9,780 nt of DNA from a virus (Duplodnaviria > Heunggongvirae > Uroviricota > Caudoviricetes): IMG/VR virus record IMGVR_UViG_2700989535_000004, positions 1 to 9,780 of that record; one strand, written 5' to 3'. The translations under genes were made by a program, and so were the position numbers. Numbering within the stretch: position 1 is the first letter of the stretch; each line of letters starts with the position of its first letter. Shown here in pieces: positions 1-9,780 of this stretch. The notes beneath the pieces are model-generated. The model had not been told where the DNA came from. It saw only the letters and a program-made list of their open reading frames with translations, and ran no database searches.

Positions 1-564
1 TCAACGACTGCGCTTAGCGTGGCGCTCCCAGTTTTCTTGCTTCGCCTGCGCCGTTTTACGTAGTGCGACGTAACACGCCCCGCTGCCGCCATGATGCGGT
101 AGCGCAGTGCAATATGCCTGAACATCATCAAATTCGGTCAGCCAGCGCGCCACATAGCTGCGGACAATATTGGCATGCGATTTATCATCCCGTCCTTTGC
201 CATGAATAATCAGCACGTTACGCAAACCATCAGCCATGGCTTGTTGAATGAAACTGAACATCATTTTGCGGCACTCTTCCACCGGCTGGCGCAAAAGATT
301 CAGGCTCGCCTGTTGCGGATATTTACCACTGCGCAGCTTATCCAGCACCCCATGTTGCAACCCTTCCCGCCGAAACTCCAGCGGCTGACTTAGTGGGATG
401 ATGTCGAGAAATCCGGTGGTGAGGAAATTATCAAGCTGCAGCGTGTCGATACGCTGCGGCGCACGTTGGTTACGCGTTGGATGCCAGTGGACATCGGTAG
501 CACGTTTCAGCGGCTGGACATCTTCCATGGCGTCAAGAAACAGCGATTTGTCGTCAAGGTTCAT
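1..564 (-). CDS. smrA: Smr-domain protein (SmrA/YdaL-like putative DNA endonuclease); host gene flanking the island
   Basis: Complete 187-aa ORF on the minus strand with stop at 1-3. Smr-type core motif (..NVLIIHGKGRDDKS..). The 187-aa length and the MNLDDKSLFLDAMEDV N-terminus match my recollection of E. coli SmrA rather than SmrB; not verified by search. Confidence 0.7.
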   Translation of the reverse strand: MNLDDKSLFLDAMEDVQPLKRATDVHWHPTRNQRAPQRIDTLQLDNFLTTGFLDIIPLSQPLEFRREGLQHGVLDKLRSGKYPQQASLNLLRQPVEECRKMMFSFIQQAMADGLRNVLIIHGKGRDDKSHANIVRSYVARWLTEFDDVQAYCTALPHHGGSGACYVALRKTAQAKQENWERHAKRSR

Positions 565-782
565 GTTACATCCTCCCGCAATTAAGAGCGCGATATGATA
601 ACCAGACCGGGTCGGTCCAACAACGTATTACCCAAAATTCCAGTAATAAGTTCCAAATATTGCCGATATTTTAAGCAAAATGCTTATGCATGATTATTCA
701 TTCACGATATTTATAATTAAATGCGCATAACTTATTGAATTTAACCAACAAACATCGCTGCAAATAACGTTAAAAATCGCAA

Positions 783-806
783 ATTAACTACACCATTAAC
801 TACACC
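783..806. repeat. Perfect tandem direct repeat, 2 x 12 bp (ATTAACTACACC)
   Basis: Read directly: attaactacacc at 783-794 and again at 795-806, in the AT-rich intergenic region upstream of the Smr gene. Confidence 0.9.
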
Positions 807-1296
807 GTTCGGTGCACTGTATGCAACAATGCGGAACAAATAGACACAAGCGACGGGCTATACCGTTATCATTTTCCGGCTATCCGCCATGAAGCTGGTG
901 GATGATCACGGATAAACCGTTATGGAAGTCCCCATATCGGCATCATGCCCACCAGCGAGATTAGTTATCTGGTTGCTGATGGGAGGCTGACGAACCTCGA
1001 TGCTAGGGTGCGCAAAACTAGTGAGACCTTTTTTCTCTGCAACAGGCCCATAATTCGCGTTTTCTTTGTCTGCCGTAAGGTGGGGGATTTTTGGCGGATC
1101 CAGCAATGGCGCGGATTTTGTGATTTTTTATAGATAGACCTCATCTATCAATCCCGTGCACACCTTCCCAAAAAAAGTTTTCGAACCTGCGGCGATGTGA
1201 ACAAGGGTAGGCGGGCGGTCCCATAAGCAATGAGGTGTAGGGATTTCTATCCCCCTGGGGGTATTAAACACCACCCGATTTAAATACCGTCTTTTT

Positions 1297-1332
1297 TGTC
1301 ACTGTGTGTCACTCTCCGTCACGGTATGTCAC
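1297..1332. repeat. Four (T/C)GTCAC motifs at exact 10-bp phasing; candidate protein-binding array at the left island edge
   Basis: tgtcac at 1297-1302, tgtcac at 1307-1312, cgtcac at 1317-1322, tgtcac at 1327-1332. The array lies immediately downstream of the last island ORF (stop at 1339). Confidence 0.8.
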
Positions 1333-1338
1333 CACAAG

Positions 1339-1620
1339 TTAACGTCGTAACCGTTCCGGCTTCTTCCAGTGGTAAGTAATTTTTTCTTTCTCTTGGTACA
1401 TCTGCACGCGGCGACGGTACGACAACATCTCCAGAACTCTGGTGCGTATGTTGCGCATATCCACGCCGTTAAGCTCGATACCGTCACGGCGCATCACCTC
1501 AGCAACAACACGCACATAATTTTCAGCGGTCACGCTGTCCGGCTGCGTGGCCTGTTCGTCAGCCTGCTGGCTGATTCCGGTAACGCGGCGGATTAATCGC
1601 AGTATTTCGGCTTCTGTCAT
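1339..1620 (-). CDS. Hypothetical protein (93 aa), last gene of the packaging operon
   Basis: ATG at 1618-1620 preceded by TGGGGGCACA (G-rich SD, 4-nt spacer); 73-bp gap after the Nu1-like gene. No recognisable similarity to lambda gpA, gpW or gpFII. Confidence 0.5.
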   Translation of the reverse strand: MTEAEILRLIRRVTGISQQADEQATQPDSVTAENYVRVVAEVMRRDGIELNGVDMRNIRTRVLEMLSYRRRVQMYQEKEKITYHWKKPERLRR

Positions 1621-1693
1621 TGTGCCCCCATCGCTCTGATAGCCTGGTGTCGTCAGGTCCTTCCTGGAATTATGGCCCGTTACGGGGCGGCGG

Positions 1694-2236
1694 TTACTCG
1701 CCTTTGTTCTGTAGCAACTTCTCAGGCGCGCTTCCGGTAGTTTCCATCAGGTAATCAGCCAGTATCTGTGGCAGGTTTTCGTCAAGTCTTGCACATGCGT
1801 TACATGCTTTGGCTATTTCCCTTTTTAGTTCATCCAGCATATACGGCCTTATATCGGGAAAGCGCCTTTGCATTGTGAGCGGGAGGCTGTCCATGATTGA
1901 TGAAATCTGACTCGCTAGTTTTGAAATCGCGTAGATGCAAAACTTTGTATCAATCACCTCGCCGCGTTCGCGCTCGTTTTTAAGTTCCTGCGCTTCCGCC
2001 TGGGCCGTCATTAATCTGATTCTTACGCGTAAAAGTTCATCATCATCAATCTCGCCTTTGTCGTTTGTAAGCTGGTTAATTGCATTGTTAACCCTATTGT
2101 CTATCACGCTAGCAACATCATAAAACGCCTCACGGCCTTTACGCTCAACGGGAGTTACTCCCCACTTGTCGAACGCTGTCGCACTTACGCGGCAGCTTTG
2201 CGCCATAGTTTTTTTGTTCATCAGGTGCGATTTCAT
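1694..2236 (-). CDS. Terminase small subunit, lambda Nu1 family
   Basis: Translation aligns along its length with lambda Nu1 as recalled (e.g. RLMTAQAEAQELKNERERGEVIDTKFCIYAISKLASQISSIMDSLPLTMQRRFP vs lambda RLTRAQADAQELKNARDSAEVVETAFCTFVLSRIAGEIASILDGLPLSVQRRFP). About 180 aa like Nu1. Start taken at ATG 2234-2236 (SD GTGGGGA, 5-nt spacer); ATG 2219-2221 (MNKK.., aligning with lambda MEVNKK) and GTG 2246-2248 are alternatives. Sits 134 bp downstream of cosN. Confidence 0.85.
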   Translation of the reverse strand: MKSHLMNKKTMAQSCRVSATAFDKWGVTPVERKGREAFYDVASVIDNRVNNAINQLTNDKGEIDDDELLRVRIRLMTAQAEAQELKNERERGEVIDTKFCIYAISKLASQISSIMDSLPLTMQRRFPDIRPYMLDELKREIAKACNACARLDENLPQILADYLMETTGSAPEKLLQNKGE

Positions 2237-2261
2237 CAATATCCCCACTTAGTTAAGGTTT

Positions 2262-2420
2262 CAGGTTGGTGTGTTGGTGTTATCTTTCCCTTTTTATTCA
2301 TAGAGATAGAGCGAAAAACAAAACCACCACCACCAACCCGAAAAGGCTCATAAATAGCGAAAATCCGCAAGGTCGCCGCCCCGTAGCCTGCCGGATCGCC
2401 GGAAAGGACCCGCCAGCCAG
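2262..2420 (-). other. Lambda-type cos site: cosQ-like flank (2382-2420), cosN (2370-2381) and a divergent cosB-like region (2262-2369)
   Basis: The minus strand reads CTGGCTGGCGGGTCCTTTCCGGCGATCCGGCAGGCTACG|GGGCGGCGACCT|TGCGGATTTTCGCTATTTATGA. The 12-nt block is the lambda cohesive end, and both flanks match the lambda right-end and left-end sequences as I recall them with only a few substitutions. After TATTTATGA the sequence diverges; the cosB-like region carries GGTTGGTGTGTTGGTG (2265-2280) and its inverted partner CCACCACCACCAACC (2324-2338) around an AT-rich core. Confidence 0.8.
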
Positions 2421-2437
2421 AACGGGCCCTAATTTCA

Positions 2438-2821
2438 TCAACCAATCAGCTTATAGCGACCATCCCGTGCATTGCGACGTACACGCTCAATCTTGAGGCA
2501 TAGCGCCGCATCTGGCTTTTTGGGGACAGGTACGCGGCAATATTCAGAAGCTCGAGGAATATTGTTTATCCAGTCGATCACTTCACTTAAATACCAGGCT
2601 TTACGCCCTTCCGTAACCTGTACGCGTTCGGGGAACTCTCCACGAGCCTCAAGGTTTAGCAATGTGCGACGGCTAAGGGTAGTAAGTTCCATCACCTGAT
2701 TCATATCAACAAGGCGTTCACTTAAACGCATTTTGTCAGCAATAGCCTTTAATTCCTCTACTGCTGGATCCGGATACATCATTTCGGCAATTGGCTTAAG
2801 GTCATTGTAATGATTCTGCAT
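2438..2821 (-). CDS. AlpA/Xis-family (HTH_17-like) DNA-binding protein, 127 aa
   Basis: ATG at 2819-2821 with SD AAGGGGGA (4-nt spacer). Central segment MELTTLSRRTLLNLEARGEFPERVQVTEGRKAWYLSEVIDWI has the AlpA/excisionase-type HTH pattern, with about 40 extra residues at the N-terminus and about 40 at the C-terminus. The stop lies directly next to cosQ. Confidence 0.6.
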   Translation of the reverse strand: MQNHYNDLKPIAEMMYPDPAVEELKAIADKMRLSERLVDMNQVMELTTLSRRTLLNLEARGEFPERVQVTEGRKAWYLSEVIDWINNIPRASEYCRVPVPKKPDAALCLKIERVRRNARDGRYKLIG

Positions 2822-2832
2822 TGTATCCCCCT

Positions 2833-3174
2833 TTACACACGAGCCAGCGGCTGAACAGAAATACCTGAGCCAACAAACGCGGCAACCTTTGCCGACAGTT
2901 CTCTTACAGACTCAGGCCAGTTCAGAGCATCAACATTTAAAACACCTGTCTTATAAACCTGTGCCTGTGTTTTTTTCGCTGTGTCGATTTGTACAGCGGA
3001 AACATAAACCGCTTTGCCTGCGCTCGTTCCATCCCATACCACTAGCGCACCAGTTGCATCTTCCTGCATCAGTGGCGTAAACGCAGGTATTACCCCTTTA
3101 TTGGCTGAAAATATCCCCAGCGTAGTAACCAGTGCTTCAGTGCCAGACATGAGTTCAGTGTAATGAGTAGCCAT
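2833..3174 (-). CDS. Head decoration protein, lambda gpD family
   Basis: 113 aa. Shares with lambda gpD as recalled: TPLM, LV(V/A)WDGT, YK(T/S)G, WPE and AF(V/A)G(S/T)(G/A)IS in the same order and spacing. ATG at 3172-3174 with SD AAGGGGGAG; starts 9 nt after the capsid gene stop. Confidence 0.85.
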   Translation of the reverse strand: MATHYTELMSGTEALVTTLGIFSANKGVIPAFTPLMQEDATGALVVWDGTSAGKAVYVSAVQIDTAKKTQAQVYKTGVLNVDALNWPESVRELSAKVAAFVGSGISVQPLARV

Positions 3175-3183
3175 TGCTCCCCC

Positions 3184-4230
3184 TTAGCCAATGCGAACGG
3201 TAACAAAACGATTGATGCGGGCCGGTATTGGCTGTGGTGCAGAGTGCGTTTGTACGTACTCAATAGCCGGATCACCAGGCACAATATAGTTTTTCGGTGC
3301 AAGTTCGGCTTTAGTCAGCCCCATTCGGGTTAGCTCCGGATCCTGAATACCGCCATAGGCGACAATCCCCTGAAGAGCCGTATTGCCAAGCACCATCAAA
3401 TCAGGATCAAGGAAATGTTTTTCAGTTCCGTCCTCGTCGGTATAACGTCCGCTGTAAACAACAATCGCAACATCGCCCATATACCCTTTAAAACTCACCG
3501 AATCACCAAGGTCTTTAAGGGCCGTTTCCAGTTCGGAATTAGAACCACGGCGGGTATCCAGAGCCTCTTTTATCGCTCTGAATGAACGGTATTTCTTCCA
3601 TACATTACCGCCCATAATGATGATATTAGTGACGCCCTCACTAAATTCTGCGTAGCTCTCAATATCATCATTTGGATCAAAAGTTTCTTTATCCTTACCT
3701 GACCACTCAGCACCGCCAGACTGCGTGATAATATTTTGTGGTTTTATATTCCAGTCCAGTTCATAACGTTCAATACCATCGCCCTCAATGATATTTTTCC
3801 CCGTTGTGATTGCCTGAACAGCAAGCCATTCAATACGTGCACGTATAGCTTTAGCCTGATTTACAATCGCCTGTTTAACTTTAATATTACGCGCCCCAAA
3901 AGCATTGTATTGTTCAGGTGATACACCAGCAGGGCGCACAGCTAACTTATTTGGATCAATGCTGCTTTTCGGTTTCATATAGCCAGGGCGAATTGTTTTT
4001 GATTCGTATCCCTCATCTCGTGAAACTTTACTGCCCACCATAGGAGAGCAAAACGCCGCGATCGGGATATTTGGATCGTCGATCGTATCAAGAATAATGT
4101 CTCTCGATTCAAACATTACCGAGCGAGTGAAAAACAAACTGGTAAACAACGCATTTAATTTTTTTTGCACATCTTCAGCATTAGCCATCTGCACAAGCTG
4201 TGTAGGCGAATATAAATCAACCATACTCAT
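3184..4230 (-). CDS. Major capsid protein, lambda gpE family
   Basis: Strong colinear similarity to lambda gpE as recalled (ITQSGGAEWSGKDKETFDPNDDIESYA.., DTRRGSNSELETALKDLG, GDVAIVVYSG, MVLGNT, with an MSM start like gpE). 348 aa from ATG 4228-4230 (SD AAAGAGG directly upstream); ATG 4222-4224 has better SD spacing. The six-frame ORF runs on to 4311 but that extension has no gpE counterpart. Confidence 0.9.
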   Translation of the reverse strand: MSMVDLYSPTQLVQMANAEDVQKKLNALFTSLFFTRSVMFESRDIILDTIDDPNIPIAAFCSPMVGSKVSRDEGYESKTIRPGYMKPKSSIDPNKLAVRPAGVSPEQYNAFGARNIKVKQAIVNQAKAIRARIEWLAVQAITTGKNIIEGDGIERYELDWNIKPQNIITQSGGAEWSGKDKETFDPNDDIESYAEFSEGVTNIIIMGGNVWKKYRSFRAIKEALDTRRGSNSELETALKDLGDSVSFKGYMGDVAIVVYSGRYTDEDGTEKHFLDPDLMVLGNTALQGIVAYGGIQDPELTRMGLTKAELAPKNYIVPGDPAIEYVQTHSAPQPIPARINRFVTVRIG

Positions 4231-4393
4231 CCTCTTTACATTCATTACAAATAATTGTGAATATATTCTATTACCGATGTCTGCTATGCGAATACATGCA
4301 ACCAAGTGCAATGTTGTATAAAATATGCCGTGACAACTTCAGTGCTGATAATTCGTGTTAATGTATTTACTTCCTTTGGTCGGGATTTATGTA

Positions 4394-4435
4394 GCATGCC
4401 GGAAAATCTATTTTTTTCCGGCATCTTTTTGTTTG
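4394..4435 (+). terminator. Stem-loop (11-bp stem) with a T-tract on the plus strand; terminator-like element between the SSB and capsid genes
   Basis: ATGCCGGAAAA (4396-4406) pairs with TTTTCCGGCAT (4414-4424), followed by CTTTTTGTTTG. The U-tract geometry is on the plus strand; on the coding minus strand the hairpin is preceded by an A-tract instead. Lies 16 bp beyond the SSB stop. Confidence 0.4.
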
Positions 4436-4441
4436 CAGAAT

Positions 4442-4864
4442 TTAAAACGGTATATTATCGCCGTACGGATCATCATTCCCCGACTGTTGTTTTGCCCTGT
4501 TCAGTGCGTCAGTGGCCTGCCCCTGCTGACCTTTTTTGCCGCCCGGTCGCGCCGTTCGCGCACTGATTACGCTGTCTGCGATAACCTGCCAGCCCCGCCG
4601 CGTTTCGCCGTTCTGGCCTGTCCACTGGCTTACCTGCATGTTACCCGCCACGCTCAGGAGTTCACCCTTGCGGTGCTTTGCCAGTGCTTCGGCCTGTCTG
4701 CCAAACGCCAGGACGGATAACCACATCGTCGCCGTTCCGTCATCTGCCTGGCTGCACGGAAGTGGGACCGCCATACTCGCCATCGTCATTTGTGTACCCT
4801 TGCTGGTGGTCTTTAACTGCGGGTCAGCCACCAGCCGCCCGTAAGCCGCTATCTGTGCTGTCAT
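4442..4864 (-). CDS. ssb: Single-stranded DNA-binding protein (SSB)
   Basis: 140 aa with an OB-fold-like N-terminal region (IAAYGRLVADPQ.., WLSVLAFGRQAEALAKHRKGELLSVAGNMQVSQWTGQNGETRRGWQVIADSV), a Gly/Gln-rich linker and an acidic tail ending DNIPF (compare SSB DDDIPF). Its ATG (4862-4864) overlaps the upstream stop as ATGA. Confidence 0.85.
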   Translation of the reverse strand: MTAQIAAYGRLVADPQLKTTSKGTQMTMASMAVPLPCSQADDGTATMWLSVLAFGRQAEALAKHRKGELLSVAGNMQVSQWTGQNGETRRGWQVIADSVISARTARPGGKKGQQGQATDALNRAKQQSGNDDPYGDNIPF

Positions 4865-5112
4865 GCTGTCTGCTCTCCGGTTTTAACGTTGATGGTTGTC
4901 ACCTGTTCCGCTTCGGCAATCTCCCGTTCTGTCAGTGTGGCAAAATTTGCCGCCGCCGTGGTCATGAATGCGCTTATCAGTTCGGGATGCGCTTTCGCGT
5001 ATCCTTCTCCGGCGTGGCGGTCTATCGTTCTGATTGCCACCTTTAAGGCGTGCTCTGTCATGTCTAATGCGCGATATTTTGGTGCTGTTTTATCTCTGCT
5101 TTTTCTGGTCAT
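4861..5112 (-). CDS. Hypothetical protein (83 aa), translationally coupled to ssb
   Basis: ATG at 5110-5112 directly abutting the iteron region; G-rich sequence upstream; stop overlaps the ssb start. No family recognised. Confidence 0.5.
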   Translation of the reverse strand: MTRKSRDKTAPKYRALDMTEHALKVAIRTIDRHAGEGYAKAHPELISAFMTTAAANFATLTEREIAEAEQVTTINVKTGEQTA

Positions 5113-5113
5113 T

Positions 5114-5316
5114 CCCCACTACCCCCCACTTTTTCGCCTCACTTTTTAAGCTCCCCACATGATTTCCAACCTTGTTTTTTTGTGATTCTAATATGTTGTT
5201 TTTCAATGTGTTTTTTATTCCTCACTTTTGAGCCTATATACAGATTGAAAAGTGAGGGGCGCGGTTGCTTTTTGTTCAGTTCCTGCTATCCCCTCACTTT
5301 TGCGCCTCACTTTTTA
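5114..5316. repeat. Iteron array flanking an AT-rich core: putative replication origin
   Basis: CC(C/T)CACTTTT(T) copies at 5124-5134, 5137-5147, 5219-5229, 5292-5301 and 5304-5315; partial copies at 5114-5120 and 5153-5160; one inverted copy (AAAAGTGAGGGG, 5247-5258). A T-rich core lies at 5161-5217. The array starts at the stop codon of the replicase gene. Confidence 0.65.
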
Positions 5317-6729
5317 CAGTGGGCGCACATCATCACCGTCAATAGCGATAACGCCGTCTCTTTCCAGCTTGTACAGCCAGCGCCGGAAGTTTTTCATCTC
5401 ATACCCCAGCTTTTTCATATCATCGCGCAACAACGGGATAGTGCATTTATCGCCGCGCTGTGTGCGTGACCGGATACAGCCCCATAGTGCGGCGTGATTC
5501 TCCGTCTTGTTTCCGGCCTCCTCGATGCGCTCCAGTTCAACGGGTGGGCGCGGCTTATCCACAACCACCAGCGACGTGATTAACTCCTTGTCAGCGTCGG
5601 TAAAAAGCTCCACCACACGTAAATCATATGCAGCCTCTTTCAGTTCCTCCGCGTCCTTCATTTTGGTGCAGGAGATAACCAGGGCCTCACTGTCCGCGCC
5701 TTCGCGGCGGATCCGGTACTCAGCGTCCAGAGATGCACGAAATGCACTGGAACCACGCGCCCCTTTTGTTTCATCCTTGCCGGAATGGTGAACCACCAGC
5801 ACCGTGGCCCCTGTGCGTCGTTTCAGTTCGTCACATCCACGGATAAACGCCCCCATATCCCGCGCGTCATTTTCATCATTACCGCCAAAGCAACGCGCCA
5901 GCGTATCCAGAATAATCATGCGTACCGGTTTACCCGTTTCCCGTTCAACCTGGCGGGATGCGATAACCATTTCATCAACATCAAACTGGGCTGCAGGAAA
6001 AATCGGGCGGGTTACCAGGTACAGATTTTTCACCCGTTCATCATTAACGATTTCCCATGCCTTGATACGGCGGGGGACACCAATGCCACCTTCACCGACA
6101 ACATACATCACCGAACCATGCGCCACCCTGCGACCTCCCCAGTGGCGACCCGTGGCAACATGACACGCCCAGGAACACGCGAGGAACGATTTATAGGAAC
6201 CGCTCGCGCCGTATGTGCTGCACAATGAATTAGCCGGAATCACGCCCTTAACGACATAATCAAGCTGTGTGTCGTACCCTGCAGATCCAATGCTCATTGG
6301 TAGCGTGGTTTTTCGCTGACTGTATTGCTCGTCAGTAAGTATTTCCCCGCGCTCTGCCTGTTCGCGGATCCGTTGCAGGTAGTCGTGCCAGTTCTCCAGC
6401 TTCTGACTGTGCATTCCCTCAGGGTAATAATTCGCATCCCGTACACCTGCCGCCGCCAGCTTTTGCCCGATGGCATTAATATTTGACGGCTTGATGTGGC
6501 CTGCCTTGTACAGTCGGACACAATAGCGACCATCGTCGATAATTTTCAGGCCTGCCAGTTCGTCAAGCTGGCTGTCTCCCAGCCATACAGGCGGAACATT
6601 GTCGCCAGCAAGTCGCCCGTCCTGCTCCTGCCATTGTTTCGCGTGCGCCCAGGCATCACTACCCGCAAAAATAATGACTTCGGTCATTTTGTCGTAAGGC
6701 TGTTTTTTTAAGTTCGGTGCGCTTTTCAT
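5314..6729 (-). CDS. Replication initiator, primase/helicase type, with RepA-like AAA_25 ATPase core
   Basis: 471 aa. Walker A-like GASGSYKSFLA (Tyr where Gly is usual), Walker B-like RMIILDT and a VLVVHHSGKDE motif typical of RepA/AAA_25 helicases. The N-terminal 170 aa may be a degenerate Toprim (EVIIFAGSDAW..LKIIDDG) and the C-terminal 100 aa a DNA-binding domain. ATG at 6727-6729 (SD AGGGG, 6-nt spacer) overlaps the upstream stop as ATGA. Confidence 0.8.
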   Translation of the reverse strand: MKSAPNLKKQPYDKMTEVIIFAGSDAWAHAKQWQEQDGRLAGDNVPPVWLGDSQLDELAGLKIIDDGRYCVRLYKAGHIKPSNINAIGQKLAAAGVRDANYYPEGMHSQKLENWHDYLQRIREQAERGEILTDEQYSQRKTTLPMSIGSAGYDTQLDYVVKGVIPANSLCSTYGASGSYKSFLACSWACHVATGRHWGGRRVAHGSVMYVVGEGGIGVPRRIKAWEIVNDERVKNLYLVTRPIFPAAQFDVDEMVIASRQVERETGKPVRMIILDTLARCFGGNDENDARDMGAFIRGCDELKRRTGATVLVVHHSGKDETKGARGSSAFRASLDAEYRIRREGADSEALVISCTKMKDAEELKEAAYDLRVVELFTDADKELITSLVVVDKPRPPVELERIEEAGNKTENHAALWGCIRSRTQRGDKCTIPLLRDDMKKLGYEMKNFRRWLYKLERDGVIAIDGDDVRPL

Positions 6730-7025
6730 TTCTTGCCCCTGAATCCGTTAATCATGGTTTTCAGCTTCTGGATGTTTGCCCGTGCCCTGGCGTTGCTGGT
6801 GGGCACGTTATGCGGCGCGGTCTGTACCAGAGAAAAATCACACCGGAACTGATAAACAGGCATCACGCAATCATATTCGTAACCTTCACGGCGGTAGATT
6901 ACGCGCCGTTCTTCCACGCCCTTAATCATTACCGTGCCGCCGTACTGGTCGCGGTAAATATCACCGCGCGTAAATTTAGGGTGAGTGTTGCCACTGGCAG
7001 TTAAGCCAGAATATTTAAGTTTCAT
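6726..7025 (-). CDS. Hypothetical protein (99 aa)
   Basis: ATG at 7023-7025 with SD GGAGA upstream; stop overlaps the replicase start. Tight operon context; no family recognised. Confidence 0.5.
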   Translation of the reverse strand: MKLKYSGLTASGNTHPKFTRGDIYRDQYGGTVMIKGVEERRVIYRREGYEYDCVMPVYQFRCDFSLVQTAPHNVPTSNARARANIQKLKTMINGFRGKK

Positions 7026-7030
7026 TATTT

Positions 7031-7264
7031 TTATTCTCCGGTGTGCTGTTCTTTATATCTGTCGTGCAATAGATCTATTTCTTGCAGTTCCATTATTACA
7101 GGCTCAAGAAGCGTTATTAATGCCGTGGCAATTCTTGATTTTTGTTTGTCGCATTCATTGTCGCCAAGTGTTTCAAGCCATATGCGCAATATTTCCAGCA
7201 TGTTTTCACTGTGAGAAAGTGCAAGAAATGCGCGGTCTATTGTTTCGTGGTAAATATCACGCAT
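7031..7264 (-). CDS. Hypothetical protein (77 aa)
   Basis: ATG at 7262-7264 with SD GAGGA (about 8-nt spacer); 5-nt gap to the next gene. No family recognised. Confidence 0.45.
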   Translation of the reverse strand: MRDIYHETIDRAFLALSHSENMLEILRIWLETLGDNECDKQKSRIATALITLLEPVIMELQEIDLLHDRYKEQHTGE

Positions 7265-7490
7265 GGCTTACATCCTCAGGAAATTTTCTTCTGTAACGCG
7301 CCTCTGCCACATATTCCGCATAATCGGCGGCGATATTCAGTACATCAAGCCCCGTTGATTTATATTCTCTCGTGGAAAGTAAGAAAAAAGCCGCTCTAAT
7401 AAGCTCTGGCATTGACGAAAGCGCATCAGCCGCATCATCAGGAACGCCGGAAAATTCCTGTTTCAGGGAATTAAAACGATCATCACGCAT
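7257..7490 (-). CDS. Hypothetical protein (77 aa); possibly the C-terminal half of a frameshifted gene
   Basis: ATG at 7488-7490 lies 2 nt downstream of a G9 tract on the coding strand, which could serve as a G-rich SD. The frame is closed 6 codons upstream of the ATG. See finding on the homopolymer. Confidence 0.4.
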   Translation of the reverse strand: MRDDRFNSLKQEFSGVPDDAADALSSMPELIRAAFFLLSTREYKSTGLDVLNIAADYAEYVAEARYRRKFPEDVSHA

Positions 7491-7723
7491 AACCCCCCCC
7501 CATTTTCACAATCAGCAATCAGGATGGCTTTGGCCTCATTCAGCGCCATATCCGCACTAAGTTGCATAACCGCCAGCGAATGAGGAACGAAAGCCCCGGC
7601 ATATTCTGTTTCACTGGTAGCGTGCTTATGCGCCCTGTCCGCGATAACAGAAATATCAATCAGCGCATCAATCAGTGTTTTGATTGCTTCGGCGGCTGCG
7701 TCCGGACGGGTGTTATTGCACAT
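7463..7723 (-). CDS. Hypothetical protein (86 aa); possibly the N-terminal half of a frameshifted gene
   Basis: ATG at 7721-7723 with SD AGGGGGT (5-nt spacer). The reading frame passes through the G9 tract (encoding GGG) and stops 28 nt later, overlapping the next ORF. Confidence 0.4.
   Translation of the reverse strand: MCNNTRPDAAAEAIKTLIDALIDISVIADRAHKHATSETEYAGAFVPHSLAVMQLSADMALNEAKAILIADCENGGGLCVMIVLIP
7493..7501 (-). repeat. Homopolymeric tract: C9 on the plus strand, G9 on the coding strand
   Basis: Read directly (aaCCCCCCCCCatttt). Sits exactly at the junction of two overlapping out-of-frame ORFs. Confidence 0.95.
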
Positions 7724-7919
7724 GGTGCACCCCCTGACGAATACGGGCGGCGAATACCATCACGCAGCCAGCCGGTGATTGCTGACGGGCTTCCTGTTCG
7801 CTGGTGGCCTCAATGGTAATCACGCGCGGTTGTGCCGTACTCAGGGCGATAAAACGCCAGATGTATTTATTCAGGTTGTGCGAGTCCCGCCCTTGCGGGT
7901 GTATGGTATGATTTCTCAT
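7713..7919 (-). CDS. Hypothetical protein (68 aa), first gene of the minus-strand operon
   Basis: ATG at 7917-7919 with SD GAGG (5-nt spacer). The six-frame ORF extends to a TTG at 8009, but that extension would cover the leader hairpin and has no RBS. Confidence 0.4.
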   Translation of the reverse strand: MRNHTIHPQGRDSHNLNKYIWRFIALSTAQPRVITIEATSEQEARQQSPAGCVMVFAARIRQGVHHVQ

Positions 7920-8017
7920 AGCAGCCTCGATAATCTTGCTATCGTTGGTGGTTAGACGCCCCGTATGTGTTTCCGGCACTGCGGGGCGTTGCTCTTTGTA
8001 TTTCAACAATTCTTTTG

Positions 8018-8096
8018 GTGTGTTTCATGTTATGAGCGCATGAAACACACGTCAAGGCTTTTTGTATTTCTTTTTTTGTGTATACTGAAACACACC
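8018..8096. promoter_or_regulatory. Divergent promoter/operator region: perfect 12-bp inverted repeat overlapping a minus-strand sigma70-like promoter, plus a third half-site at the plus-strand promoter
   Basis: GTGTGTTTCATG (8018-8029), 9-bp spacer, CATGAAACACAC (8039-8050). Minus-strand promoter: -35 TTGACG (revcomp of 8050-8055), 17-bp spacer, -10 TAACAT (revcomp of 8027-8032). Third half-site TGAAACACAC at 8086-8095 just downstream of a plus-strand -10-like TATACT (8081-8086). A fourth GTGTTTC lies at 7967-7973 inside a leader hairpin (ACGCCCCG 7956-7963 / CGGGGCGT 7982-7989). Confidence 0.5.
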
Positions 8097-8116
8097 GATG
8101 ATTAGGAGTTTCAGAA

Positions 8117-8422
8117 ATGGCAACGGCTAACAAAAACGCAAAATCACAACTGACAACTGTCAGAGTCCCACTAGATGTTATGCAAGGGATGGAATCCGTT
8201 AAGCTGGACGGCGAAAGCAATGCCGGATTTATCGTAACCGCCATGCGCGGAGAAATAGCCCGCCGCCAAGCAGAAGGCAGCGGAGAAAATCCCCTTGTGT
8301 CGTCACTGGATGCCCTGGCTAAGGTCGAACAAATCGGCATCAAAGCAGCGGAAGAAATCGGGCAGCTTGTCACCGTTGCACGCGAAGAACTCCAGCGTCG
8401 CAAGACCAAAGAACCAGAGTAA
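8117..8422 (+). CDS. Putative ribbon-helix-helix (RHH) DNA-binding protein, 101 aa; candidate island repressor
   Basis: Strong SD (TAGGAG, 8-nt spacer). N-terminal segment QLTTVRVPLDVMQGMESVKLDGESNAGFIVTAMRGEIARR fits a beta-strand/helix/helix RHH pattern. Operator-like repeats lie just upstream and an intrinsic terminator downstream on the same strand. Composition is A/E/K-rich, unlike the Ser/Arg/Cys-rich opposite-strand reading. Confidence 0.6.
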   Translation: MATANKNAKSQLTTVRVPLDVMQGMESVKLDGESNAGFIVTAMRGEIARRQAEGSGENPLVSSLDALAKVEQIGIKAAEEIGQLVTVAREELQRRKTKEPE

Positions 8423-8479
8423 TCACCATCAGCGCCGTGGTGTAAGGTATTACGGCGCATTGCTATGCAGGACAACACA

Positions 8480-8653
8480 ATGACCGATAAAGAATTGACC
8501 AAAACATTATCACCGGCACGGAAAAGACGGCGCAGAAAGATAGAGCATGAATCAGAAAGATTCGCGCCATGTGCTTTTGCTCTTGAGAAATTCCTTAAAG
8601 AGCACAGGAAAAAGCTCTCGTTGCAAACCTTGGAACGAACCAAATCTGACTGA
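8480..8653 (+). CDS. Small basic protein (57 aa), co-transcribed with the RHH gene
   Basis: ATG at 8480 with AGGA 7 nt upstream; the ORF-track start at 8465 has no SD. Contains an RKRRRRK block. Followed 80 bp later by an intrinsic terminator. Confidence 0.4.
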   Translation: MTDKELTKTLSPARKRRRRKIEHESERFAPCAFALEKFLKEHRKKLSLQTLERTKSD

Positions 8654-8732
8654 TCACATTGCCCACCAGCCGCAAATGTGGCATTGTTGGTGATGCTCAT
8701 GCGTTGGGGATAACGTGTAGCTTGTGTCGAGG

Positions 8733-8761
8733 GGCCACCGTAGCGGGTGGCCTTTGTTTTG
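8733..8761 (+). terminator. Rho-independent terminator of the plus-strand cassette
   Basis: GGCCACC (8733-8739), loop gtagcg, GGTGGCC (8746-8752), then TTTGTTTTG. The U-tract is on the plus strand only. Confidence 0.6.
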
Positions 8762-8763
8762 CC

Positions 8764-9129
8764 TGTTATCCGGCAATTGTGGCGCTTCGCCACACGGTTG
8801 ATATAATCCCACTGCTCAGATTCATTTTTTGCGCAGTAGGTTAATTGTTCACAAAGGCGCTCCGGCAACGGGGCGCTTTTTGTTTTTATTAGTTTGTAGA
8901 AACCTGACTCAGAGATAATGCTCATATTCTGATTGCCGTCAGGGGTGTAAGTTAAATTTACTCCCTTTTTATCATCAAACATCTGCAACGCTCTGGCGTT
9001 AACAATATTGGTTTCACTCCCTCCAGTAAGGCCGGAAATAACCGGAATAATTTCGGCAAAATTTTGCAGATTCTGTTTTTCAGGACGAACGAAGCCCCGC
9101 CCTTGTTCGGGAGAATATCCAGTATTCAT
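8764..9129 (-). CDS. Hypothetical protein with a possible Bro-N-like motif; 3' boundary undefined, possibly a truncated remnant
   Basis: ATG at 9127-9129 with only a weak SD. The segment PDGNQNMSIISESGFYKLIKTKSAP resembles the Bro-N core (GGKQ.MT.INESGLYSLI..S.KP), but the N-terminal Bro-N signature is not evident. The ORF formally continues without a stop to 7939, across the plus-strand terminator, cassette and promoter region; I list only the 5' part, ended at an arbitrary in-frame position. Confidence 0.3.
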
Positions 9130-9181
9130 GGTTAGATCTCTGTATTAGTGGATGGGTGGCGGCTGTGTGCCGCCAGCCTGA

Positions 9182-9370
9182 TTAGTGAACTGCCTCGCAG
9201 CTTTCCTTCCATGCCAGAACTTCGGATAAAGACCAGCCAACGGAACGACCGCCGAGCTTACGCCGTGATGGGAATTGTCCGGTTTTTTCCAGGCGGTACC
9301 GACATGAACGGCTCAGGCCTGTAAGTTGCTGACATTCTTTTTCACGTATAAAGCGATCTGTGCTTAACAC
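9182..9370 (-). CDS. alpA: AlpA-family transcriptional regulator / excision-associated HTH protein (62 aa)
   Basis: DRFIREKECQQLTGLSRSCRYRLEKTGQFPSRRKLGGRSVGWSLSEVLAWKE matches the AlpA/Vis-type HTH. Start taken at GTG 9368-9370, preceded by SD AAGGGGGA (3-nt spacer); the 118-aa ORF-track start at 9538 has no comparable RBS. Confidence 0.75.
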   Translation of the reverse strand: MLSTDRFIREKECQQLTGLSRSCRYRLEKTGQFPSRRKLGGRSVGWSLSEVLAWKESCEAVH

Positions 9371-9403
9371 AATTCCCCCTTTGATATTTCTTAAAGAGTT
9401 ATT

Positions 9404-9450
9404 TGGTGTCCTATTGTGTTGTGGTGCGTCGGATTGTGTCAGGGTGTTTA
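9404..9450. repeat. Five (T/G)GTGT(C/T)-type motifs at 10-bp phasing upstream of alpA
   Basis: TGGTGTC 9404-9410, TTGTGTT 9414-9420, GGTGCGTC 9423-9430, TTGTGTC 9434-9440, GGTGTTT 9444-9450. Confidence 0.7.
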
Positions 9451-9664
9451 TGGAATGGCAAACACTGGCGGCGGTCATTTTACAGAAGTGTGGTAATGAG
9501 AATAAAAACTCTTTTAATTCATTGTGGTGCAAAGGCATAAAATTCTGTTTTTACGCCTTTTTTACATGTTTTTAAGAGTGATTCGCCAATGTACAAAAAG
9601 CCAGTAAAACGACTGAAAATCAACTTTTTAGGGTGTCAGTCAGATGTTAATCAAGTTTGTTCCA

Positions 9665-9715
9665 GATTGTTCGCCGTTGTTCGTCGTGGTGTCTCGTTGT
9701 TTCACGTTGTGTCAG
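9665..9715. repeat. Five tandem 10-bp units ending in (C)GTTGT, with TTGTGTCAG
   Basis: Motifs (G/C)(A/G)T(T/G)GT at 9665, 9675, 9685, 9695 and 9705. The 9-mer TTGTGTCAG occurs at 9707-9715 and at 9434-9442; GGTGTCAG at 9632-9639. Confidence 0.7.
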
Positions 9716-9780
9716 TTCTAAAAAATCGCAAAAAAAATTATATTTCTCTGGCTATTGGCAGTGTGGTTACGTTTTTGTGA

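Follow-up and report, generated by a model that had tools for sequence, protein, structure and literature searches.

A candidate YlcI repressor–operator switch at the replication operon of an EcCICFT073-type phage-inducible chromosomal island

We analyzed 9,780 nucleotides of viral DNA (IMG/VR record IMGVR_UViG_2700989535_000004, positions 1 to 9,780; the window, below) and focused on the region between ylcI, a plus-strand gene of the YlcI/YnfO family, and the divergent minus-strand replication operon that is headed by an icd-like gene. Judged by gene order and gene content, the window is a satellite island of the EcCICFT073 type, that is, a Gram-negative phage-inducible chromosomal island (PICI). 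We concluded that this region is probably an immunity-type switch, in which YlcI, a predicted ribbon-helix-helix (RHH) repressor, would act on four sites and keep the replication operon off. An earlier note on this DNA, made from its letters alone, had proposed that a repressor bound here would shut off the replication operon and could autoregulate. Comparison with related loci supports that proposal, through sites on both conserved promoters and through their co-variation with YlcI, and the mechanism itself is one that we infer.

The window contains a perfect 12-bp inverted repeat, GTGTGTTTCATG (8018–8029) and CATGAAACACAC (8039–8050), with a 9-bp gap between its arms. The repeat was unique in the 9,780 bp at up to 3 mismatches, and no match to it arose in 200 shuffled sequences. 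A 10-mer, TGAAACACAC, occurred in exactly three copies in the window, all within ~80 bp (8018–8027 on the minus strand, 8041–8050, and 8086–8095); at up to one mismatch the shuffled sequences averaged 0.75 matches, and 3 of 200 reached three. The inverted repeat lies on the promoter of the replication operon (P_icd), and the third exact copy overlaps the last base of the conserved plus-strand −10 of ylcI (TATACT, 8081–8086); on both points the earlier note was right.

We compared the region with related loci from other genera, from diverged E. coli copies, and from viral-contig collections, which gave ~25 distinct versions (numbered with the prefix L below). All 21 of the aligned loci had a common layout, in Escherichia, Xenorhabdus, Photorhabdus, Serratia, Enterobacter, Erwinia, Pantoea, and Phytobacter, and EcCICFT073 had it too. 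In plus-strand order the layout runs from the hairpin region through site O1, the −10 of P_icd, site O2, and the −35 of P_icd, and then through site O4, a T-rich spacer, a TATAMT −10, and site O3 to the Shine-Dalgarno sequence and ylcI (Table 1). A promoter scan reported P_icd as the only sigma-70-like site in 7700–8500, where 0.9 would be expected by chance; we therefore call the promoter because it is conserved in relatives and not because of the scan. Across 23 loci, the −35 of P_icd matched 4–6 of the 6 consensus bases and read TTGAC(G/A) in most, a TAnnnT-type −10 stood at 16–18 bp in most, and a TATAMT-like hexamer held a fixed position for the ylcI promoter in most. This conservation at fixed spacing supports the minus-strand sigma-70 promoter, TTGACG-17-TAACAT, that had been proposed on the repeat.

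Four sites were found, one at −9 to +4 and one at about −31 to −19 of each of the two divergent promoters. Within the O1/O2 and O3/O4 pairs the centers were 22–24 bp apart, or about two helical turns. The O1 core, GTGTGTTTC, was kept across genera in loci of the same type as the window while the spacer varied, and was type-specific in other loci. Of the 17 loci that were scored, 9 had O3 at one and the same offset, +29 relative to the −35 anchor, and in the others the best match was O4 (+0 to +6); O3 showed 0–2 mismatches to the O2 of the same locus. Degenerate in the window, the O4 position held a type-specific copy in most types (ATGTAAGAC in L015, TGTTGAACAC in L021, and AAATACACAC in L007), with the best matches at offsets of +4 to +6. 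The perfect 12-bp inverted repeat was a feature of the window type only; O1 and O2 were direct repeats, not inverted, in EcCICFT073/L020, L007, L011, and L012. Because of these direct repeats, each ~13-bp site (frame nnTG-N5-CACn) is more likely to be the full site for one symmetric dimer than a half-site. That is, the repeated sites of the earlier note are real, but their interpretation as half-sites is not favored.

The sequence of the sites varied by locus group and tracked YlcI residues 11–17, the predicted DNA-reading strand. Strand QLTTVRV went with the site core TGAAACACAC (window, Xenorhabdus, Photorhabdus, and Serratia), QMTTVRI with GTGAAATACAC (L022), QMTTIRV with GTGATATACAC (L069), QS[LV]TARI with GTCTTACAC (L015 and L018), QQ[LI]NARF with TGAATCnCAC (L019 and L013), QALKARV with GGTGTGGCCCAC (EcCICFT073 and L020), QTVAARV with GGTGTTGAACACC (L021), and xKNxRx with GGTGTGYAT (L007, L011, L012, and L017). 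The O2 10-mer differed by a mean of 1.47 mismatches from O3/O4 and 1.24 from O1 of its own locus, versus 3.13 (O3/O4) and 3.45 (O1) for loci with a different reading strand. A permutation test over 11 types gave 23 mismatches observed, compared with a permuted mean of 67.5 and a permuted minimum of 33 (100,000 permutations, P ≤ 1e-5). Predicted repressor specificity and operator sequence thus changed together between immunity types.

On the sequences compared here, linkage alone does not explain this co-variation, because L013 and L019 have the same type of strand and core but unrelated spacers, and because the bases between O1 and O2 vary within the window type, in which O1–O3 are kept from E. 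coli to Xenorhabdus. The YlcI N-terminal domain of L013 (Phytobacter) is 48% identical to that of the window protein. Identity between the window and L017 was 100% over 8450–9749 (the alpA side), 92–98% over 7750–7900, and only 52–64% over 8000–8250, as for a cassette exchanged between otherwise identical islands. Only the N-terminal part of YlcI tracked the sites. As part of the probable switch, the reading head (amino acids 11–17) and the operators would have been swapped together between islands, with at least eight specificity types.

YlcI belongs to the family NF041551 (YlcI_YnfO_N), which it matched over residues 9–50 at 63.2 bits (cut-off 30). The full-length AlphaFold2 model shows an extended segment and then helices at residues 19–28, 35–54, and 59–98; the N-terminal model had a predicted local distance difference test score (pLDDT) of 87.6, and the models are of monomers. 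The modelled order of an N-terminal strand followed by two helices matches that of solved RHH proteins, which suggests an RHH fold. When the YlcI family was compared by hhalign with Arc, the strand and helix A were aligned, KSQLTTVRVPLDV with SKMPQFNLRWPREV (E 0.0014, probability 17.5%). R16 was invariant, and the types differed at the adjacent positions 12–15. Given the predicted fold and a reading strand that co-varies with the site sequence, the 101-amino-acid protein is a good candidate for the autoregulating repressor, as the earlier note had suggested. All PHROGs matched by YlcI are of unknown function, and a 2026 survey listed YlcI/YnfO only as a “prophage-associated protein” (PMC13612085).

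A short YlcI of 59 amino acids, which includes the EcCICFT073 form, is without the long helix. It is common in islands (L018–L022; EcCICFT073 is L105, 8474–8653) and resembles a long form from which the C-terminal helix, between the RRQ and RRK motifs, has been lost. Directly after the ylcI stop in the window is a 7-bp GC-rich hairpin (GCGCCGT...ACGGCGC, 8433–8459) that has no T-run next to it on either strand. Just 3′ of ylcI, a plus-strand open reading frame (ORF) of 62 amino acids (8465–8653; phrog_21027, E 1.9e-14), which itself lies inside a long antisense ORF, may be cotranscribed with ylcI as a second gene; at this position a 57-amino-acid gene is annotated in EcCICFT073 and L019.

Table 1. 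Coordinates of predicted and annotated features in the window.
Feature	Position	Strand	Remarks
ylcI, 101 amino acids, predicted RHH repressor	8117–8422	+	Strand at amino acids 11–17, helices 19–28 and 35–54, long C-terminal helix 59–98
Predicted operator O1, GGTGTGTTTCATG	8017–8029		Spans −9 to +4 of the icd-operon promoter
Predicted operator O2, CATGAAACACACG	8039–8051		In promoter spacer, 2-bp overlap with −35 (−31 to −19)
Predicted operator O3, ACTGAAACACACC	8084–8096		Spans −9 to +4 of the ylcI promoter
Predicted operator O4, TTGTATTTCT, degenerate	8062–8071		7/10 bases as in O1; −31 to −22 of the ylcI promoter
Predicted early promoter P_icd	8027–8055	−	−35 TTGACG 8055–8050, 17-bp spacer, −10 TAACAT 8032–8027; predicted start near 8019–8021
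Predicted ylcI promoter, −10 TATACT	8081–8086	+	−35 weak; predicted start near 8092–8094
ylcI Shine-Dalgarno, AGGAG	8104–8108	+	
Predicted cis-antisense small RNA, distant SymR relative	7920–7995	+	Two stem-loops, the second being the GC hairpin 7956–7989
Candidate extended −10 for antisense RNA, TGgTATGAT	7904–7912	+	7 nt upstream of predicted 5′ end
Long ORF, 396 codons from ATG	7939–9129	−	Starts just after alpA, runs antisense through ylcI and the four operators, stops 20 nt before the icd-like ATG
icd-like gene, 68 amino acids, first of operon	7713–7919	−	NF033153, E 1.4e-19; PGAP annotation of identical copy
icd-like Shine-Dalgarno, GAGG	7928–7925	−	
Operon with overlapping stops and starts: icd-like, three small ORFs, DUF4222, RepA-family helicase (5314–6729)	5314–7919	−	ORF list; PGAP
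alpA, AlpA-family regulator, upstream of long ORF	9182–9370	−	Pfam PF05930, E 1.3e-17; PGAP

Several observations weigh against a switch operated by YlcI. Overexpression of AlpA alone induces replication in EcCICFT073 (PMC6092414), and YlcI is therefore not the sole control and can be bypassed. Pfam gave no match to YlcI at E ≤ 0.01, so that no curated RHH sequence family recognizes it, and at relaxed Pfam limits the sole match was a weak one to the RHH family PF07704, obtained for 4 of the 18 members (best E value 0.0034). Neither the single sequence nor a profile matched anything when the PDB was searched by sequence, and Foldseek with the N-terminal model gave no useful matches. The −35 of the ylcI promoter is poor, and the promoter scan did not report that promoter. 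In L018, L019, and L022, O4 is weak or absent and O1 lies ~13 bp further out. Finally, the reading head adjoins the operators, so linkage could account for part of the co-variation.

We propose that, in a resident island, YlcI on O1 and O2 would block RNA polymerase at P_icd and thereby silence the icd-like gene together with the small ORFs and the helicase of the RepA family. Negative autoregulation would come from O3 and the weaker O4, which have the same positions on the divergent ylcI promoter, and the long C-terminal helix of YlcI would probably join dimers into tetramers. As a second layer, a constitutive plus-strand antisense RNA would prevent translation of any icd-like message that leaks through. 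In a recipient cell that has no YlcI, the transferred P_icd would be active until the repressor builds up. During helper induction, AlpA-driven upstream transcripts may be read and translated through the long ORF and so bypass the switch, which is the least supported step of the proposal. What we observed are the sequences, the way in which they are conserved and co-vary, a modelled fold, and the strand on which the RNA structure forms; what we infer are binding, repression, an oligomeric state, and transcription starts.

An unlikely alternative is that YlcI does bind the sites but has another main role (autoregulation only, activation of P_icd, or action on the helper phage), or that P_icd is inactive and transcription of the operon depends on the alpA promoter alone. 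AlpA is a known regulator of EcCICFT073-type islands and is both necessary and sufficient for induction of EcCICFT073, in which a reporter in ORF3 was AlpA-dependent (PMC6092414). The long ORF connects alpA to the operon, and activation is also possible for some RHH proteins, such as Mnt and AmrZ. However, the TTGAC −35 and the TAnnnT −10 at 16–18 bp are kept across distant genera, O1 and O2 lie within the core promoter (−31 to +4), which is the usual position for repression, and the sites are arranged identically on the two promoters, which suggests that both are occluded.

It is also improbable that the repeats bind a factor other than YlcI, whether AlpA, the Icd-like protein, a small-ORF product, or a host protein. 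AlpA would be a natural choice as a regulator already known in these islands (PMC6092414), and Icd-like families are labelled ‘transcriptional repressor’ in phrog_6196 and phrog_1743. Yet the window and L017 have identical AlpA, Int, and RepA, a common DUF4222, and near-identical icd-like genes, and differ in their operators, so these proteins were rejected as the site-binder. Int and AlpA are likewise identical in L019 and EcCICFT073, and three small-ORF proteins are identical in L016 and EcCICFT073, with different operator types in each comparison. Site sequences that differ by type would not be needed for a host factor, and the part of the island proteins that follows the sites is the N-terminal part of YlcI only.

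We consider it very improbable that the inverted repeat acts as a nucleic-acid hairpin, either in the termination or processing of read-through RNA or in a pairing like that of seqA and seqB in P4. Any transcript across the repeat would fold into a 12-bp stem with a 9-nt loop, P4-type immunity in the equivalent region works by RNA–RNA pairing (PMC10111431), and L015 has C4 and isrK RNAs downstream of its switch. Direct repeats, as found at the same positions in EcCICFT073/L020, L007, L011, and L012, cannot form such a hairpin, and a hairpin function was rejected on this ground. In addition, there is no U-run directly after the stem on either strand, O1 is mostly upstream of the predicted P_icd start, and Rfam gave no C4 or isrK match in the window. 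The probability that the repeats are functionless products of chance is negligible: a single sigma-70-like match in 800 bp is indeed the expectation for shuffled sequence, but the inverted repeat appeared in none of the 200 shuffles, three exact 10-mers lie within 80 bp, and conserved, co-varying sites across ~25 loci already contradict it.

The GC-rich hairpin beside O1 had been described in the earlier note as a leader structure of the minus-strand operon that carries a fourth half-site, and neither part of that description was borne out. Its stems are ACGCCCCG (7956–7963) and CGGGGCGT (7982–7989), and the 8-mer TGTGTTTC (7966–7973) in the loop has 8 of 9 half-site bases. We rejected this copy as an operator because the loop and inner stem are independent of operator type: L015, L021, and L064 have the same hairpin with three different operator sets, and L064 combines window-type operators with an L015-type hairpin that is without the 8-mer. 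The fourth site is instead the degenerate one at 8062–8071.

The hairpin folds on the plus strand. The RNAalifold consensus was −27.3 kcal/mol with 23 pairs, many of them G-U, on the plus strand, versus −6.1 kcal/mol with 11 pairs on the minus strand; in the window, 7920–8004 folded at −33 kcal/mol (z −3.6) on the plus strand and −22.8 kcal/mol (z −2.3) on the minus strand. On the plus strand, 96.9% of cells were paired and 10 pairs showed compensatory change, compared with 35–45% paired in slid controls. The conserved structure is antisense to the ribosome-binding site and start of the icd-like gene. The predicted RNA is fully complementary to the icd-like 5′ untranslated region and Shine-Dalgarno sequence, and begins at the base adjoining the start codon (7917–7919). 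We read this structure as a cis-antisense RNA (about 7920–7995), presumably transcribed, over the icd-like ribosome-binding site. A TAnnnT hexamer was present 7 nt upstream of the predicted 5′ end in almost all loci and at the same spacing in K-12 symR (in L002 and L003 it was 1 nt out of register as extracted). Its A at −11 and T at −7 were kept even where the icd-like codons that overlap them specify different amino acids.

The predicted RNA resembles SymR of the symE-symR pair (Rfam RF01809), which likewise runs antisense to the gene opposite, over its ribosome-binding site and start, has two stem-loops, and has a −10 located 7 nt before the 5′ end; the sequence blocks GTCAG-CAT, ATTGTG-TTAG, and GTGTT-GCGCAC occur in both. 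The SymR model gave full-model matches on the plus strand, at the homologous place, in L002, L021, L015, L005, and L013 at 30–39 bits. None of these five relatives reached the gathering score of 61, the window copy gave no SymR match even at E ≤ 10 (211-nt search), and the island RNA differs further in that its target is icd-like instead of symE. Because K-12 symR has sequence blocks in common with the island leader, the data hint at a common origin of symER and this leader.

A leader RNA of the C4/CI type was considered, since the hairpin is upstream of icd-like, and was rejected; the C4 (RF01695) and isrK (RF01394) models gave no match in the window at E ≤ 1 or at E ≤ 10. L015, a related E. 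coli island, does have such RNAs on its minus strand at 1212–1397 (C4 77.6 bits, isrK 66 bits), directly downstream of the YlcI switch and inside an ‘ash family’ pseudogene that is followed by a second icd-like gene. Therefore, protein and P4-type RNA immunity can coexist in one element.

The switch region is not simply intergenic but lies inside a long minus-strand ORF that begins just after alpA. An ORF of 285–541 codons was open here in 23 of 25 loci, and in most it continued in frame into icd-like; in EcCICFT073 (L105) it has 433 codons (7752–9053). In the 171 nt upstream of ylcI, the ORF frame had no stops in 18 of 20 loci, and the other two minus frames contained totals of 86 and 101. 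Within ylcI, T was never the third base before a CAN codon (0/126, versus 20% elsewhere), and antisense TGA is thus avoided. Of the two overlapping frames, ylcI is the one selected for its protein: substitutions were conservative in ylcI (mean BLOSUM +0.25) and radical in the antisense frame (−0.91), and ylcI differences were concentrated at codon position 3. The amino-acid sequence of the long ORF was not conserved. It gave no Pfam domain and no tblastn match among phages, and an impression of a Bro-N-like N-terminus was not confirmed. The long ORF has apparently been kept open by selection, and we take it to be the ‘ORF3’ of the EcCICFT073 study.

A tentative extension, which we would not yet back over other accounts, is that this one translated ORF (‘ORF3’, similar to eta of P4) links alpA to the replication operon and houses a quiescence module of three layers, the control otherwise missing for Gram-negative PICIs: ylcI in antisense, its four operators on an internal early promoter, and a distantly SymR-like antisense RNA over the icd-like start. 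Helper-induced, AlpA-activated transcription that is translated across ylcI and the operators might then silence ylcI, clear the repressor, defeat the RNA, and flip the switch. The frame would be selected for its translatability and not for its protein.

The proposed switch can be compared with known systems. Arc and Mnt are, as we propose for YlcI, products of small RHH repressor genes divergent from the promoter that they control, with operators in the core promoter and with autoregulation; Mnt has a C-terminal coiled coil that forms tetramers, and a small antisense RNA acts there on the first genes of the repressed operon. In contrast, YlcI has no Pfam match to Arc and an hhalign E value of only 0.0014, the site centers are 22–24 bp apart rather than about 11, four sites serve two promoters, and the element is a satellite island instead of a phage, with its module nested in a long ORF. 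In P4, eta contains the early promoter (PLE), the immunity RNA, and the nested kil, and late transcripts are able to read through when eta is translated (PMC10111431). The island region occupies the same place, between the alpA/vis homologue and the replication genes, has an early promoter in a long ORF, and in most relatives has a short C-terminal product in the same frame (Kil in P4, Icd-like here); its relative L015 carries C4 and isrK just downstream. It differs from P4 in that the proposed immunity factor is a protein from the opposite strand and not the CI RNA, the window is without a C4/isrK match, and the window ORF ends 20 nt before the icd-like ATG and does not run into icd-like. Stl and Rpr are the master repressors of Gram-positive PICIs (SaPIs) (PMC6092414, PMC6695447). 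As with those repressors, ylcI is divergent from the replication-gene operon and its product would hold the island quiescent; unlike them, YlcI is a predicted RHH instead of a helix-turn-helix protein, ylcI points toward int/alpA and is not co-oriented with int, no helper-phage antirepressor is known, and AlpA-dependent activation coexists with it.

The PICI literature knows no repressor for Gram-negative islands, and a search of the available literature (YlcI/YnfO, RHH with PICI, Icd-like with PICI, SymR with satellite) found no description of this module. RHH repressor–operator switches are well known. What is new is that three features are combined: a reading head and operators that can be swapped, a distantly SymR-like antisense RNA, and a position within an ORF selected to stay open.

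The island to which the switch belongs is widespread. The 801 bp around the switch were 100% identical in many E. coli chromosomes, and 1734 of 5426 complete genomes had sequence related to them. A further search put related sequence in 1715 of the 5426 E. coli genomes, or about a third, with as many as 6 copies in one genome and ~2270 copies in all. An identical copy in clone D i14 was annotated by PGAP with the order int, alpA, and the plus-strand YlcI/YnfO-family gene (window 8117–8422), then on the minus strand icd-like (7713–7919), three small ORFs, DUF4222, and the RepA-family helicase (5314–6729), and then SSB, major capsid protein, head decoration protein, an AlpA-like gene, and terS. 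EcCICFT073, a proven Gram-negative PICI, agrees with it in gene order and, going by annotation, in gene set (int, alpA, ylcI, icd-like, DUF4222, primase, SSB, PerC, major capsid, and head decoration), and it is for this reason that we assign the window to the EcCICFT073 type. An int gene, alpA, a replication module, late genes, and a ~10-kb length, together with homology to a proven PICI, all agree with this assignment. The operon does end in a RepA-family helicase, as the earlier note had said of its replicase, but the ORF list and PGAP annotation of the identical copy give it six ORFs and not seven.

Elsewhere in the window, a second AlpA-family gene (127 amino acids, 2438–2821, minus strand; PF05930, E 1.4e-8) lies in the late module, adjoining the head decoration gene and terS. 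Between this AlpA-like gene and terS is an imperfect inverted repeat of ~87 nt (2258–2344), whose minus-strand RNA folded at −37.9 kcal/mol (z −6.2) and for which Rfam gave spurious microRNA matches only; it might serve in packaging or regulation. A second mosaic region is made up of the small ORFs that separate icd-like from DUF4222 (7050–7700), with 2–56% identity in 50-bp blocks between the window and L017, islands that are otherwise nearly identical.

The module provides a concrete candidate repressor and operator set for these islands, the prototype EcCICFT073 included. It may explain the silence of the island and how the toxic icd-like gene stays off. The specificity types, which we liken to the heteroimmune groups of temperate phages, may explain why several islands can share one cell. 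Once binding is confirmed, YlcI proteins and their sites would be candidate orthogonal pairs of small repressors and operators. Lastly, ylcI appears to be a gene whose opposite strand carries an overlapping ORF that is itself selected to stay open.

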